This document shows, in pieces, positions 6,233 to 12,508 of a stretch of DNA of 59,450 bases. The notes beneath the pieces are model-generated. The model was not told the origin of the DNA. It did not search any database and saw only the letters and a list, made by a program, of their open reading frames with translations. The position numbers and the translations under genes are program-made. Origin of the DNA: an uncultured Candidatus Saccharibacteria bacterium (GTDB taxonomy: Bacteria; Patescibacteriota; Minisyncoccia; JBAYJV01); the NCBI GenBank assembly GCA_964577395.1, contig CAZNYQ010000004.1, positions 1 to 59,450 on the forward strand, written 5' to 3'. How positions within the stretch are numbered: position 1 is the stretch's first letter; every line of letters begins with the position of its first letter.

Positions 6233-7219
6233 ATGAAAGAATTTTTTAAAACTTCAAGTTTAGTCGTGATTTTCTTAACTCTCTTAGGGTTATTAATTTT
6301 TTTGCCTCAAAGCCGCGCTTTTGGCACTCAACATTTCCTTCCCTCTTCTTTGATTAATCTGGGACATGTTTTTCGCTTTACATTTGGAAGAAATACTGCT
6401 CTCCAGTCAGACCAAGATGGCTGGACTAATATTTTAGTTATGGGAATACCAGGAGAAGGCAATCCTGCTCCTGAATTAACAGATAGTATTATCTTAGCTT
6501 CTTTTAAGAATGACAAAATTGTTTTTTTATCTATTCCGCGCGATCTCTATGTTAAACCAACTAAAGATAGTTATTACAGAAAAATTAACTCTCTCTTATC
6601 AGCTAATTTTTCTCTCCAGCAGATTAAAGAAGTTATTTATGATATAACAGGACGGCGAGTTCATTATTGTATTACCGTTAATTTAGATTTAATTAAAGCA
6701 TTAACTAGAAAATTAGGTGGAATTAATATTTTAGTTAAAGAAGATATTGTAGACCCTACTTTTCCCGGACCTAATTACAGCTATGATCCTTTTTATTTAA
6801 AAAAGGGTTGGCGGCACTTAGATGCTGAAACAGCTGTAAAATATGTTAGGACACGTTATGATAGTGAAGGTGATTACGGAAGAATGAAAAGACAACAACA
6901 ATTCTTAGCAGCTATTAAGCAAAAAATTTCTAATCTAAACAGTTTTCAAAACTTTGATTTTATTCTTTCTCTCTACCAAGATTTTCAAGAACATATTAAA
7001 ACTGATATGACCATCAATGAGATTAAAAATCTTTGGCAGAAAAGTAAAGATACAGATCTTGCTAATGCTCAAGCAATTCGCTTAACAGCTTCTCAGCCCT
7101 CTCTTTTAAAGGAAAGTTTTGTAAGCACATTTCAGGGTAGAATGTTTGTTTTAGTACCCAGAGCTGGTCTTGGTAATTACACTCAAATTTCTAATTTTAT
7201 TAAACAATATTATGAATGA
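6233..7219 (+). CDS. LCP (LytR-CpsA-Psr) family cell-envelope phosphotransferase
   Basis: TDSIIL, SIPRDLY, KINS, YVRTR, DYGRMKRQQ motifs after an N-terminal TM. Confidence 0.92.
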   Translation: MKEFFKTSSLVVIFLTLLGLLIFLPQSRAFGTQHFLPSSLINLGHVFRFTFGRNTALQSDQDGWTNILVMGIPGEGNPAPELTDSIILASFKNDKIVFLSIPRDLYVKPTKDSYYRKINSLLSANFSLQQIKEVIYDITGRRVHYCITVNLDLIKALTRKLGGINILVKEDIVDPTFPGPNYSYDPFYLKKGWRHLDAETAVKYVRTRYDSEGDYGRMKRQQQFLAAIKQKISNLNSFQNFDFILSLYQDFQEHIKTDMTINEIKNLWQKSKDTDLANAQAIRLTASQPSLLKESFVSTFQGRMFVLVPRAGLGNYTQISNFIKQYYE

Positions 7220-7763
7220 TTTAAAAACAATTTTAATTTTTGGCTTAGGTAATCCAGGAGAAAAACATCACAATAGCCGTCATAATATAGGAAGAGAAAT
7301 AATTAATTTTTTGGTCAAAGAATTTAATACTTCTTTTGAACACAAAAAAAAGCTTAAAAGTTTCTTAGCCGAGGTAAACCAAAATTCTCACAAAATTCTT
7401 TTAGCAAAGACCGAAATGTTTATGAATGAAAGCGGCTATGCTGTCCGGCTTATTAAGGATTATTACAATATTTCTAATCAAAACATTTGGATTATTCAAG
7501 ATGATGTAGATATTGCTTTTGGAAATATCAAGACTTCTTTTGAAAGAAATGCAGCTGGCCATCACGGCATAGAATCAATTATTAAGCATTTAGGTAATAA
7601 TGAATTCCATCGTATCAGGATAGGAATTTGGAACCGACCTTTCTCAGAAAAGAAAAAAGAAATTACTCAAAGTTACGTTATGCAAAAATTTATCCCGGAA
7701 GAATTAGACAAAATATTAGATATAAAAAAAGAAGTAGCTCAAATAATTAAAGCTACTTTTTAA
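7212..7763 (+). CDS. pth: Peptidyl-tRNA hydrolase
   Basis: GLGNPG, RHNIG, FMNESG, DDVD, RIRIGI; start taken at ATG 7212. Confidence 0.94.
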   Translation: MNDLKTILIFGLGNPGEKHHNSRHNIGREIINFLVKEFNTSFEHKKKLKSFLAEVNQNSHKILLAKTEMFMNESGYAVRLIKDYYNISNQNIWIIQDDVDIAFGNIKTSFERNAAGHHGIESIIKHLGNNEFHRIRIGIWNRPFSEKKKEITQSYVMQKFIPEELDKILDIKKEVAQIIKATF

Positions 7764-7909
7764 AAATTCCTTACCTTGTCCTACCTACGAGCGTTAGGAA
7801 TATATGCAGTTGCATCTATCCCTAAACCTTACCGCTGATTACAGAGGTAGGAGGGATCACTCTGCAAATAGCACTCATAGGCAAGACAAGAAGAGGAATT
7901 TTTACTACT
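7762..7909 (-). ncRNA. Candidate 6S-RNA-like rod-shaped RNA
   Basis: Perfect promoter upstream; AAAAAUUCCU/AGGAAUUUUU plus a 19-bp helix CUUGUCUUGCCUAUGAGUG/CGCUCGUAGGUAGGACAAG, an internal bubble and an apical stem. Confidence 0.6.
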
Positions 7910-7915
7910 TTGTAT

Positions 7916-7944
7916 ATTATAATCTTTTAAGTTAAGTTTGTCAA
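7916..7944 (-). promoter_or_regulatory. Consensus sigma70 promoter
   Basis: TTGACA (7944-7939), 17-nt spacer, TATAAT (7921-7916). Confidence 0.8.
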
Positions 7945-7951
7945 TACTTAA

Positions 7952-9972: not shown

Positions 9973-10920
9973 ATGTTTTGGAAAGAATTAAAAAGACCTC
10001 TTCTCTGTTCAGCTCCTATGTCAGGAGTTACTGATGCTGTTTTTAGAAAAATTCTTACAAAAAATGGCAAACCAGCTGTTATTTTTACTGAATTTGTATC
10101 TTGTGATGGATTGTGTTCTCAAGGCAAAGAAAAACTTTTAAGACAACTTCAGTTTTCTAAAGAAGAAAAACCTATCGTAGCTCAACTTTTTGGATCGCAA
10201 CCCGATAATTTTTACACATCAGCGCGCTTAGTTAAGAATCTAGGTTTTGATGGGATTGATATCAATATGGGATGTCCAGATAGAAATGTGATTAAACAAA
10301 AAGCTGGCGCTTATTTAATCAAAACTCCTCGTATAGCTTCTCAAATTATCCAAGCTACTAAAAAAGGAGCTGGCGATTTACCTATTTCTGTGAAAACAAG
10401 GATTGGTTATGATAAAAATCAAATTAAGGAATGGGCAAGTTTTCTATTACAGCATAAACTAGCGGCGCTAACAATTCATGGAAGAACCAAACAGCAAGCT
10501 TATACAGGTAAGGTTAACTGGCAAGCTATTTACAGAACAAAAGAAATTGCAAAAAAGATATCTCCTGAAACTTTAATTATTGGCAATGGTGATATTAAAA
10601 CCTTAAAAGAAGCTTTTAAAAAAGCTCGGGAATATAAAATTGGTGGCATAATGGTAGGAAGAGCTTTATTAAATGATATCTTCTTTTTTAACCAAGATAA
10701 AAGTATCCAAAGTTTTTCTTCTCGAAAAAGAGCTGAATTACTAATTCAGCACGCTCAACTTTTTGAAGACACGTTTCCTCAAGCAAATTTTTCTAATTTG
10801 AAGAAATTCTTTAAAGGATATATTAGTGATTTTAAGTATTCTAGTAGCTTAAGAGAGAAATTAATGAAAGCAAATAACAGTCAAGAATTAAAGGAAATTG
10901 TGGACAACTTTTTTGAGTAA
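9973..10920 (+). CDS. dus: tRNA-dihydrouridine synthase
   Basis: APMSGVTD, QLFGS, DINMGCP, HGRT, NGDI, MVGRA motifs. Confidence 0.94.
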   Translation: MFWKELKRPLLCSAPMSGVTDAVFRKILTKNGKPAVIFTEFVSCDGLCSQGKEKLLRQLQFSKEEKPIVAQLFGSQPDNFYTSARLVKNLGFDGIDINMGCPDRNVIKQKAGAYLIKTPRIASQIIQATKKGAGDLPISVKTRIGYDKNQIKEWASFLLQHKLAALTIHGRTKQQAYTGKVNWQAIYRTKEIAKKISPETLIIGNGDIKTLKEAFKKAREYKIGGIMVGRALLNDIFFFNQDKSIQSFSSRKRAELLIQHAQLFEDTFPQANFSNLKKFFKGYISDFKYSSSLREKLMKANNSQELKEIVDNFFE

Positions 10921-10949
10921 AATTCATTTAAGAGATATAATATCTATAT

Positions 10950-11225
10950 ATGGATAAGATAAAAAATTTCTTTGGCTTTTACAAGATGGTTAGCACCAAG
11001 ATATTAATTTCAATATATATTATTGGTGCTCTAGCAATTATTGCCTTTGGAATTAATTTAATTACTCAAGGCGGTATTAATATTATAGCAGGTCTATTAG
11101 TTTTATTATTAGGTAGTTTGGTTTGGAGAATTATATGTGAGCTTTGGATATTACTTTTTAAAATGTATGATCTTTTAAAAAAAGTTAAAGAATATTTACA
11201 AAATTTAAGTGATAGTATTCATTAA
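10950..11225 (+). CDS. Small membrane protein, DUF4282-like
   Basis: Two TM helices and WRIICE..ILLFKM pattern. Confidence 0.65.
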   Translation: MDKIKNFFGFYKMVSTKILISIYIIGALAIIAFGINLITQGGINIIAGLLVLLLGSLVWRIICELWILLFKMYDLLKKVKEYLQNLSDSIH

Positions 11226-11268
11226 AAACCTCGTTAAAAAACGAATTTATCAAATTTATCGTTTTTAC

Positions 11269-11297
11269 TTGACAGAGGATATTTTTTTTCATAGAAT
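11269..11297 (+). promoter_or_regulatory. sigma70-like promoter
   Basis: TTGACA (11269-74), 17-nt spacer, TAGAAT (11292-97). Confidence 0.72.
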
Positions 11298-11303
11298 AGG
11301 AAT

Positions 11304-11540
11304 TAGTATCGTGGAGATAAGGAATAAAAACTTCTAAATCTCCTTTAGAGGGGAAGATATTATCAGGGCTTTAATAGGCCACTGCCAACCACAGCCCTTA
11401 CTGTAATGCTGTCTATATAAAAACAGAGGAGATATTACAGGTTAGAGTTTTCGACCTTGAGCTTTGCCTTCGAAACTCTAGGCAATATCTATCTTCCTAT
11501 CTCCGAGCCCGGTGAAGTTAGTTGCACCGGGCTCTTTAAT
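11304..11540 (+). ncRNA. Candidate multibranch structured RNA or long regulatory leader
   Basis: At least six helices of 6-11 bp between the promoter and a GC-rich terminal hairpin; no SD-led ORF inside. Confidence 0.55.
11505..11540 (+). terminator. Intrinsic terminator-like hairpin
   Basis: GAGCCCGGTG/CACCGGGCTC followed by TTTAATAT (short U tract). Confidence 0.6.
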
Positions 11541-11628
11541 ATATCTAGATATGTGGAAAAATGTCTCTTGACTTATCTTATTTATCTATGGCAATATAGA
11601 TATAAGTTCTTTTTAGGAGGTAGGAGAA

Positions 11629-12063
11629 ATGTTGATGGGAAAGCAAACTATCATATTAATTGATGGTGATAGGGTAGTCTTTTTTTATGAAGATTTTCCT
11701 ATAACTAAAGTATATAAATACTATTTAAGAGATAAAGACGATTCACAAAATATTATTTGCTATACTAAGAAAGGCAATAAAAAAATTCTGAAAGTTCGGG
11801 AAATGTATGATGATAGAGTTGCTTGGCTTTTCCGCTTAAGAAGAGCTCAAAGCCATAAAGCTCTTAAAAATATCCACAAGAATTTTTCTGAAGCAATTGT
11901 CTTACTTAAAAAACTAAATCCAAAACCTCAAGGAGAAGAGAATAATCGTCCCTTAAGAGAGGCAGCTAAAATTCTCTCACCCGATGATTATCTCATTGTT
12001 GTTCCCAGAGACCAGTTAAAGACACTGCTTAATCCTAGCGTATTAAAAAAAATCCCTGGTTAG
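11629..12063 (+). CDS. Hypothetical protein
   Basis: 144-aa ORF with double SD AGGAGGTAGGAG and a terminator overlapping its end. Confidence 0.7.
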   Translation: MLMGKQTIILIDGDRVVFFYEDFPITKVYKYYLRDKDDSQNIICYTKKGNKKILKVREMYDDRVAWLFRLRRAQSHKALKNIHKNFSEAIVLLKKLNPKPQGEENNRPLREAAKILSPDDYLIVVPRDQLKTLLNPSVLKKIPG

Positions 12064-12078
12064 TTTCAGGGATTTTTT
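12047..12078. terminator. Bidirectional terminator
   Basis: AAAAAATCCCTG/CAGGGATTTTTT between convergent genes. Confidence 0.75.
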
Positions 12079-12085
12079 ATTCTAT

Positions 12086-12508
12086 TTAAATACCTAAATT
12101 TTGTTGATCCAAAGCTTGATTAGCTAATTGATCCGCTTCCTTGTTTTGTTCTCTCGGAATTGCTTTAAATTCTAAAATTGCTTTATTCTTTAAAACAATT
12201 TTTTTGTTCCAAGCTTTTAAGAAAAGTCTTTGTAAAGACGGTTGAGTAATACGATAATCACCTTTCATTTGTTCAATCATTAATTTTGAGTCAGCATAGA
12301 AACAAATTTTTTGAGGATGGTATCGATTAACATGTTTCATTGCTTCTATGAGAGCTTCATATTCTGCTTCATTATTCGTTTTTTTTCCTAAGACTTGGTG
12401 TTTTTTCCAAATAACATTGCCTTGCTCATTTTTGAAGACGATACCTAAGGAAGCTGGTCCTGGATTACCACGTGAAGCTCCGTCTGTGTAAACATTTAAA
12501 ATTTCCAT
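12086..12508 (-). CDS. rnhA: Ribonuclease HI
   Basis: TDGASRGNPG, TNNEAEYEA, DSKL, NKEADQLAN motifs. Confidence 0.95.
   Translation of the reverse strand: MEILNVYTDGASRGNPGPASLGIVFKNEQGNVIWKKHQVLGKKTNNEAEYEALIEAMKHVNRYHPQKICFYADSKLMIEQMKGDYRITQPSLQRLFLKAWNKKIVLKNKAILEFKAIPREQNKEADQLANQALDQQNLGI

Follow-up and report, generated by a model that had tools for sequence, protein, structure and literature searches.

A probable standalone structured RNA gene at a conserved locus in one order of Patescibacteria

When examining a 59,450-nt stretch of a 613-kb Patescibacteria genome (contig C4 of genome G000; the whole stretch is referred to as the window), we found that positions 11304–11540 of the plus strand very probably constitute a real, separately expressed gene for a structured RNA, here named R0. 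Judged from its position, promoter, and architecture, R0 appears to be the equivalent, by location, of a hitherto undescribed RNA family that is confined, as far as seen, to one order of Patescibacteria. Synteny, expression, and variation that leaves base pairs intact, all seen in relatives, support the standalone-RNA reading. If it is combined with the proposal that this RNA works as a regulator through a CU-rich element near its 3' end, we put the probability of the whole statement at roughly 0.55; this figure is lower than the one for the RNA gene itself, because the mechanism is a guess. A first-pass annotation had proposed either a standalone RNA or a switching leader of the 144-aa gene that follows. 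The first alternative stood, as the same unit was found in eight relatives and two of the copies are expressed, whereas the leader did not stand as a conserved function, since the downstream gene is an orphan without homologues.

The unit begins with the TTGACA-17-TAGAAT promoter that the first-pass annotation had pointed out, and a promoter scan gave it as the top promoter-like site within positions 10800–12400, with a predicted transcription start near 11304. The G+C content of R0 is 41%, compared with 32% for the genome and 24–32% for the flanks. When positions 11300–11550 were folded and compared with 200 dinucleotide shuffles, the minimum free energy (MFE) of the plus strand was −76.1 kcal/mol against −59.2 ± 4.6 kcal/mol for the shuffles (z −3.67), and 0/200 shuffles were as good. 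Both the MFE and the centroid structures were multibranched. All of the helices that had been listed earlier were present when each was checked against the sequence, with perfect Watson–Crick pairing: the outer closing helix P1 consists of GGAGAU/AUCUCC plus AGGAA/UUCCU (11313–24/11494–504), the inner 7-bp helix of AGAUAUU/AAUAUCU (11355–61/11484–90), and the interior helices of AGGGCU/AGCCCU, CUGUAAU/AUUACAG, and UAGAGUUU(U)CGA/UCGAAACUCUA.

A 9-bp helix, GGGAAGAUA/UAUCUUCCU (11351–59/11490–98), had been suggested to compete with P1, and the energies agreed with this. The fold with P1 forced had −75.6 kcal/mol and that with the alternative forced −75.1 kcal/mol, i.e. they lay 0.5 kcal/mol apart. 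With the alternative helix forced, positions 11313–11343 made a 5' hairpin. The fold with the outer and inner helices is called conformer A and the fold with the 5' hairpin and the clamp conformer B; by these calculations the two are effectively iso-energetic, and the mutually exclusive helices are real in thermodynamic terms. The terminal hairpin (11505–34) was not called as a terminator by a terminator scan, and since it is followed only by UUUAAU, termination at 11505–11540 may be leaky.

Features of the R0 locus in the window
Feature	Position	Strand	Remarks
Promoter TTGACA (11269–74), 17-nt spacer, TAGAAT (11292–97)	11269–11297	+	11/12 consensus positions
Purine-rich 5' strand GGAGAUAAGGAA	11313–11324	+	Conformer A: outer closing helix (P1); conformer B: local 5' hairpin with 11332–11343
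Hairpin CUUCUAAA-UCUCC-UUUAGAGG, conformer A	11331–11351	+	Holds a U–G pair, equal to a C–A mismatch on the minus strand
Second purine-rich strand GGGAAGAUAUU	11351–11361	+	Pairs with 11484–11498 in the alternative 9-bp or the inner 7-bp helix; counterpart of the relatives' purine/pyrimidine clamp
Three interior hairpins	11365–98, 11401–40, 11443–80	+	Predicted fold
CU-rich 3' element AAUAUCUAUCUUCCUAUCUCC	11484–11504	+	3' partner common to both competing helices; abuts the terminal hairpin
Terminator-like hairpin GAGCCCGGUG/CACCGGGCUC, 10-bp G+C-rich stem (11505–14/11525–34), then UUUAAU	11505–11540	+	Weak U-tract
Weak candidate promoter TTGACT, 18-nt spacer, TGgCAATAT	11568–11597	+	Read from the sequence; poor −10; unlisted by the promoter scan
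Shine–Dalgarno sequence plus start codon (GGAGGUAGGAGAAAUG) belonging to the orphan gene	11616–11631	+	Complementary to 11494–11504
144-aa orphan open reading frame	11629–12063	+	Outside the conserved RNA unit; position of variable cargo in relatives

The genome library covered the order of the window organism with four species only. The syntenic locus was recovered from genomes G001, G002, and G003 via Dus and RNase H as anchors, further metagenomic contigs were reached via RNase H proteins at 63–69% identity, and 12 lineages were compared. The order Dus, DUF4282, gap, RNase H, RecJ, with the last two genes on the minus strand, is syntenic in G001, G002, and G003. A unit of the same type was found in the gap after DUF4282 in nine of the 12 lineages, namely the window and eight relatives (G001, G002, G003, L130, L132, L134, L135, and L139). 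The gap with the unit follows Dus in L132, and the locus is rearranged in L134, with the unit still located after Dus–DUF4282. Alignment of the nine loci (alignment A3) showed that the TTGACA and the TA...T of the promoter are invariant, with a spacer of 16 or 17 nt. The body of the unit is G+C-enriched, 225–550 nt long and rich in hairpins, it folds well (e.g. z −3.8 for G002), and the predicted folds of the homologues are multibranched throughout. A terminator hairpin followed by U5–U8 was present in all relatives except L139, which has UUUUC. A Dus-anchored scan of genome contigs gave one syntenic relative, the other 79 loci being without synteny, and an RNase H-anchored scan of metagenome contigs gave nothing above 48% identity.

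Beyond the terminator of its RNA, L134 carries a second promoter, TTGACA-16-TATAAT, that drives another structured stretch (L134:5060–5390). This stretch holds a 16-codon open reading frame (ORF) with a strong Shine–Dalgarno (SD) sequence and lies ahead of a convergent mfd gene.

A long-range duplex between a purine-rich and a CU-rich strand was predicted by RNAduplex in all nine loci, at −20.8 kcal/mol for R0 and −19.5 to −34.5 kcal/mol for the other eight. The CU-rich strand (UAUC...CUUCYYUC) ends 0–7 nt before the terminator (0 nt in R0), and no sequence is kept better among the homologues than its UAUC...CUUC. The purine-rich 5' strands of the clamp (GAGGGGAAGA, GAGGGAGAAG, AAGAGGAAGU, GAGAGAAGA, GAGAGGAGA, GAAGAGAAGG, GGAGGGUCA, and GGAAGAAAGG) drift, and G–U pairs occur in L135, L130, and L139. 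Conformer B of R0 has the arrangement seen in the G002 and G003 types, and conformer A that seen in the L130/L139 type.

The way in which the relatives vary speaks for a structure that is maintained in RNA. In a natural variant of the G001 RNA with 13 substitutions, seven are located in MFE stems, each with its pair preserved, and the other six are at unpaired positions. The pair changes were A–U to G–U, C–G to U–G, and U–G to C–G, and they fix the strand, since the G–U pairs would be C–A mismatches on the other one. The same variant has a 38-nt insertion that replaces an apical loop, and two of its three single-base insertions lie in a loop. For the close RNA pairs, which share approximately 50% identity, plain MAFFT with RNAalifold was uninformative and was replaced by our own pairing-profile aligner, after which the consensus folds were compared with column-shuffled alignments. 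The consensus folds beat the shuffles in G002/L132 (z −3.4), G003/L135 (z −11.1), and L130/L139 (z −4.3), although these scores are supportive rather than decisive, because the aligner itself favours structure. The numbers of double-sided changes were 11, 17, and 13, respectively. For instance, the 5' hairpin GUCUGA/UCAGAC of G003 has become GUUGGC/GUCAAC in L135, and UUUCG-AGUUUC-CGAAA has become CCG-AGUUUC-CGG with the loop unchanged.

Expression was found for two of the relatives in Logan contigs of lake (X6–X13) and wetland (X15–X19) metatranscriptomes. In eight lake metatranscriptomes, the G002 RNA was represented by contigs with 0 mismatches that covered only L028:6390/6400 to 6551–6636 (contig L028 carries the G002 locus), at a word depth of 11–1262. 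The covered span takes in the 5' hairpin and everything up to the final base of the terminator stem; the rest of L028:1–8000 was unseen except for one 300-nt stretch at depth 5–14. In four runs where both were seen, the depth of the G002 RNA was 1262, 966, 1206, and 114, and that of G002 transfer-messenger RNA (tmRNA) was 502, 529, 730, and 301, so that, with depth taken as a rough measure of abundance, the G002 RNA is clearly in the tmRNA class. An RNase P RNA contig of G002 was not found in the same lake runs, and together with the tmRNA-like abundance this places the RNA among the principal RNAs of these cells. The G001 RNA (located on L129) was represented by wetland contigs of 512–517 nt, from a strain approximately 96% identical, which within the 3.8-kb locus covered RNA positions 37–515 only. 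As these contigs span both modules of the 546-nt G001 RNA, the RNA is one transcript.

The RNA contigs of both G002 and G001 begin approximately 37–47 nt after the start predicted from the promoter. They skip a conserved leader of approximately 36 nt (L028:6354–6390; L129 RNA positions 1–36) that is common to the G002/L132 and G001 RNAs, which points to either processing of the 5' end or a second start site. R0 has no counterpart of this leader. In two contigs, sequence from the 3' portion of the G002 RNA ran on into its 5' portion (L028:6601->6411 in X8 and 6636->6432 in X9), the junction 6601->6411 being at the base of the clamp helix. Such permuted junctions may be due to template switching by reverse transcriptase or to ligation chimeras, and circular or permuted forms are also possible. 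Over L028:6423–6467, runs X8 and X12 contained another expressed relative of the R2 type (the type of the G002 RNA), with four differences in 45 nt and with flanks such as UAGCCCUAAGAGGAAGUGCA.

The conserved unit starts with a near-consensus sigma-70 promoter immediately behind the DUF4282 gene, followed in some members by a 5' hairpin. A GAAGA-like, purine-rich strand then clamps the CU-rich (UAUC...CUUCYYUC) strand, with three to five fast-changing hairpins between them and the terminator 0–7 nt past the CU-rich strand. How the RNA acts is a matter of tentative modelling; our best guess, well short of even odds, is a role as a regulator working through the sequence-constrained CU-rich element. 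In such a scheme, the CU-rich element would normally be covered by one or another of the purine-rich strands inside the RNA and could pair with purine-rich, SD-like sites. In G000, where the terminator is degenerate, read-through transcripts would carry the SD of the orphan gene in masked form, as a local add-on and not as the conserved function.

Several observations weigh against the standalone gene or its proposed mechanism. A BLAST search of R0 against 60 relatives gave only chance matches of 15–28 nt, and local alignment of R0 with every other member gave z ≤ 1.4, i.e. no significant similarity. As no sequence relative of the body was detectable, R0 is assigned to the family by position, promoter, and architecture, and the slot could be filled by RNA genes that are unrelated to one another. 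A search for a universal k-mer or loop motif among the members found none, only AGGGA/GAGGGA being marginally above the null. The unit is missing from the site in L131, L141, and L137 (DUF4282 abuts RNase H in L131 and L141, and in L137 the RNA after DUF4282 is a 6S-like one), which indicates that the RNA is dispensable or mobile. The minus strand of the R0 region folds just as well (z −4.55), nearly all pairs being of the Watson–Crick kind; the plus strand was assigned because of the promoter, the U–G pair in the hairpin at 11331–51, and the relatives. No RNA-seq run with the window organism was found, and none for G003, and the metatranscriptome contigs of the relatives are unstranded. Seven independent contigs of the window organism, from several samples (its DNA runs are X1–X4), were 100% identical over 11226–11640, so the R0 sequence offers no covariation information. 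The expression and structure of the exact R0 sequence are therefore extrapolated from the relatives. As regards the mechanism, conserved anti-SD targeting of downstream genes was rejected, as the high rank of the adjacent gene described below was seen in G000 only (rank 86 in G001 and 124 in L135, of 766). A GGAGG-type SD precedes only approximately 6% of the long ORFs in G000, and the CU-rich element lies within a stable helix of 9–14 bp, which is unusual for a seed region.

The gene immediately downstream of R0 bears on the question of a leader. It had been called an orphan in the first-pass annotation, and indeed a search of 5.8 billion proteins returned the 144-aa ORF itself and no homologue, and no Pfam domain was found. 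That annotation had also asked whether the downstream genes of relatives would be consistent, as for a cis-acting RNA, or variable, as for one acting in trans; they proved to be variable, absent, or unrelated, which argues for a standalone RNA and not a dedicated leader. No same-orientation gene follows the RNA in G002, G003, L130, L132, and L139, where RNase H comes next, in convergent orientation. Small downstream ORFs are present in G000, G001, and L135 (144, 67, and 100 aa), but they are mutually unrelated, and those of G001 and L135 sit behind a strong terminator with a TTGAC(A/T) promoter of their own. The 67-aa protein of G001 has a weak ribbon-helix-helix match (E 0.045), and the 100-aa protein of L135 (L135:3115–3417) is an orphan. 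The site just downstream of the RNA thus behaves like an insertion hotspot.

When the CU-rich element of R0 was compared with 766 translation initiation regions of G000, the adjacent orphan gene had rank 1, with −20.7 kcal/mol (background mean −6.5, standard deviation 3.2). In a modelled read-through transcript (11304–11680), the SD at 11616–11626 paired with 11494–11504 with a probability of approximately 0.95, whereas in a modelled transcript starting at 11600 the GGAGG was free. The weaker promoter that the first-pass annotation had allowed the gene was recovered in part: TTGACT is present at 11568, but the −10 is poor and the promoter scan did not list the site. Given the weak U-tract, this weak promoter, and the rank-1 SD match, a local cis effect on the orphan gene would be plausible. 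A further step would be to regard the region as mainly a cis-acting 5' leader (an attenuator or translational switch) of the 144-aa gene in G000, in which transcription reads through the weak hairpin and the CU-rich strand is clamped either internally, leaving the SD free, or on the SD, masking it. The two iso-energetic internal conformers, like the SD pairing a thermodynamic prediction for this one genome, would suit such a switch, as would the terminal hairpin that does not score as a terminator. We nevertheless hold this to be improbable, as the gene is a singleton, five relatives have no gene in a position to be led and, except for L139, terminate their RNA at a strong U5–U8 tract, and the ORFs found elsewhere show no special complementarity to the element. 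The relatives also lack the conserved core expected of a ligand-binding leader, and the internal helices form first in transcription, so that the SD-masking fold may never be reached.

The tmRNA-like abundance and the paired 5' and 3' ends would also fit an RNA that sequesters or scaffolds proteins, like 6S, CsrB/RsmZ, or CrcZ, with the clamp helix only protecting the ends. Variation in the number and length of hairpins (225–550 nt overall), including the tandem modules of G001, is typical of sponge RNAs, in which architecture is kept more than sequence. However, neither CsrA nor Hfq could be detected in the G000 genome, the members have no repeated loop motif in common, and the fold is multibranched without a match to the 6S model, for which a better rod-shaped candidate exists in the window; we therefore judge this explanation, although the chief alternative to the CU-rich-element mechanism, to be unlikely too. 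The idea that the region has no RNA function at all, but is an A+T-rich spacer with GATA/TATC-type repeats (a binding or recombination site at the DNA level) or a hotspot of transcribed junk, would account for the AGATA/TATCT words that are repeated through 11313–11610, for the equally good fold of the minus strand, for the failure of R0 to align with any relative, and for the variable neighbouring cargo. It is very hard to reconcile with the near-consensus promoter kept in nine lineages, the G+C enrichment of the region, the discrete and very abundant RNAs made from the relatives' copies, the pair-preserving substitutions with G–U pairs that work on the plus strand only, and the same clamp-plus-terminator layout in all nine. 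We thus prefer the standalone RNA gene.

The RNA bodies within the family differ widely. By local alignment, the G002 and L132 RNAs formed one type (z 28), G003 and L135 another (z 9–10), and L130 and L139 a third (z 5–8), and the R0 and L134 RNAs resembled no other member. The G001 RNA consists of two tandem clamp-closed modules; its 3' module resembled the L135 RNA (z 6–8) and its 5' module the G002 leader (z 4–5). When the G002 RNA was searched by BLAST in 401 genomes of the class, it returned only itself, the congener G003 being unmatched. A tree of Dus and RNase H placed (G002, L141) and (G003, L132) in one tight clade, in which the RNA type is R2 in G002, none in L141, R3 in G003, and R2 in L132, and R3 was found again in the distant L135 and G001. 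Thus, the RNA types do not follow the species tree, and the bodies evolve very fast. Either an ancestral multi-module gene with differential loss of modules or exchange of bodies between lineages would account for the mismatch. It is conceivable, though we attach little probability to it, that this is a cassette-like RNA locus with a lasting promoter, clamp, and terminator, whose hairpin body can undergo replacement, duplication, or loss even from one species of a genus to another. The mismatch with the tree, the tandem modules of G001, and the unrelated orphan genes that land just downstream would fit this picture. If so, the tmRNA-level abundance would point to a new fast-diversifying class of RNA engaged in conflict or partner interaction (phage defence, or the dealings of episymbionts with their host cells) and not in housekeeping.

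Searches for known RNAs agreed with the statement in the first-pass annotation that no RNase P, tmRNA, signal recognition particle (SRP), or common riboswitch core was recognisable. At the gathering threshold, Rfam 15 matched only two tRNAs and an L10 leader in the whole window, all outside the region, and the cmscan that had been suggested as a check gave, for 11150–11700 at E ≤ 10, only chance-level matches of 13–20 bits. The homologues R1, R2, and R3 were also without an Rfam match. The RNase P RNA of G000 is located at C8:26870–27192 and its tmRNA at C2:19994–20349, i.e. elsewhere in the genome. SRP RNA was rejected since neither RF00169 nor RF01854 matched in the region or the genome and the R0 hairpins do not have a GNRA loop followed by AGCA; a regular-expression match resembling SRP domain IV at C1:8385 was not confirmed by cmscan. 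There was no ORF with SRP-GTPase motifs in G000 that could be Ffh or FtsY, the best tblastn match with Escherichia coli Ffh (an approximate query sequence) had E 0.29, and RF00169 matched in 0/41 genomes of the class. Either the Patescibacteria class of G000 is devoid of SRP and FtsY or the models missed them.

6S RNA was rejected because RF00013 had no match in the region or the genome (E ≤ 10) and the fold is multibranched and not a rod with a central bubble. A CsrB/RsmZ-type sponge was rejected as well: tblastn with two CsrA sequences gave a best E of 0.065, and GGA counts were 4–16 compared with 3–10 expected. The absence of a reverse transcriptase nearby (the neighbours are Dus, DUF4282, the orphan ORF, RNase H, and RecJ) and the terminator that follows the RNA in relatives spoke against a retron msr-msd. 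No ORF or reading frame is kept between close relatives, as would be expected of a coding gene. An RsaE/RoxS-like RNA was dismissed, as there was no Rfam match and the CU-rich element was base-paired in every predicted fold and not exposed in a loop. Membership in a cis leader or riboswitch family was not supported, given the lack of a conserved same-orientation downstream gene and of a conserved core across relatives, the interiors of different RNA types being impossible to align.

Among known systems, the RsaE/RoxS-type small RNAs (sRNAs) of Firmicutes (RF01820) are standalone RNAs with their own sigma-70 promoter and terminator, and with a pyrimidine-rich element that pairs with ribosome-binding sites independently of Hfq. 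The R0 unit resembles them in being standalone, with a sigma-70 promoter, a terminator, a sequence-constrained pyrimidine-rich element, and no dependence on Hfq. However, the R0-type RNAs are two to five times longer, give no covariance-model or sequence match, and have no conserved target, and their CU-rich element lies in a long-range closing helix by the terminator and not in hairpin loops. They share with 6S RNA a high abundance, paired 5' and 3' ends, and an architecture that is kept more than the sequence, but differ from it in their branching, in lacking an RF00013 match, and in being missing from some lineages, besides the fact that a separate and better 6S-like RNA lies 3.4 kb upstream. 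The likeness to CsrB/RsmZ and CrcZ consists of a modular array of hairpins varying in number, high copy number, and rapid sequence turnover; the differences are that G000 has neither CsrA nor Hfq and that no recurrent loop motif of the GGA or A-rich kind is seen in the R0-type RNAs, in which SD-like words are only modestly enriched. In G000, R0 is also similar to an SD-sequestering leader or riboswitch platform, having a CU-rich anti-SD strand, competing purine-rich strands, and a hairpin right after the closing helix, but there is no conserved regulated gene or core, and the strong terminators of the relatives face a convergent gene. The fast turnover of the body combined with a conserved clamp by the terminator suggests that the family is more than one further base-pairing sRNA.

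The separate RNA mentioned above is rod-shaped and 6S-like, is encoded at window 7755–7950 on the minus strand behind TTGACA-17-TATAAT, and folds with z −6.9. It has a clear sequence-conserved homologue beside pth in L137 (L137:4700–4900) and is much better conserved than R0.

Patescibacteria (the candidate phyla radiation, CPR) account for much of the diversity of bacteria and have tiny genomes. To our knowledge, few regulators and almost no non-coding RNAs beyond the universal ones have been described in them. The transcript described here is not represented in Rfam and has been retained at a single locus across an order. If its function were found, this would offer an initial look at RNA-based regulation, or at conflict, in ultra-small bacteria that have not been cultivated.

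As the locus illustrates, RNA genes of this kind can also be mislabelled by automated annotation. In G002, an antisense ORF of 129 codons (L028:6278–6667, minus strand) spans the whole RNA and is broken in the close relative L132; it is likely a spurious gene call, and one that could hide the RNA in annotations. Upstream of R0, the DUF4282 gene has a promoter-like site of its own, TTGAGT-17-TATAAT (window 10913–10952), which ends 8 nt before the ATG at 10950. As the site is this close to the start codon, the DUF4282 mRNA may be leaderless.

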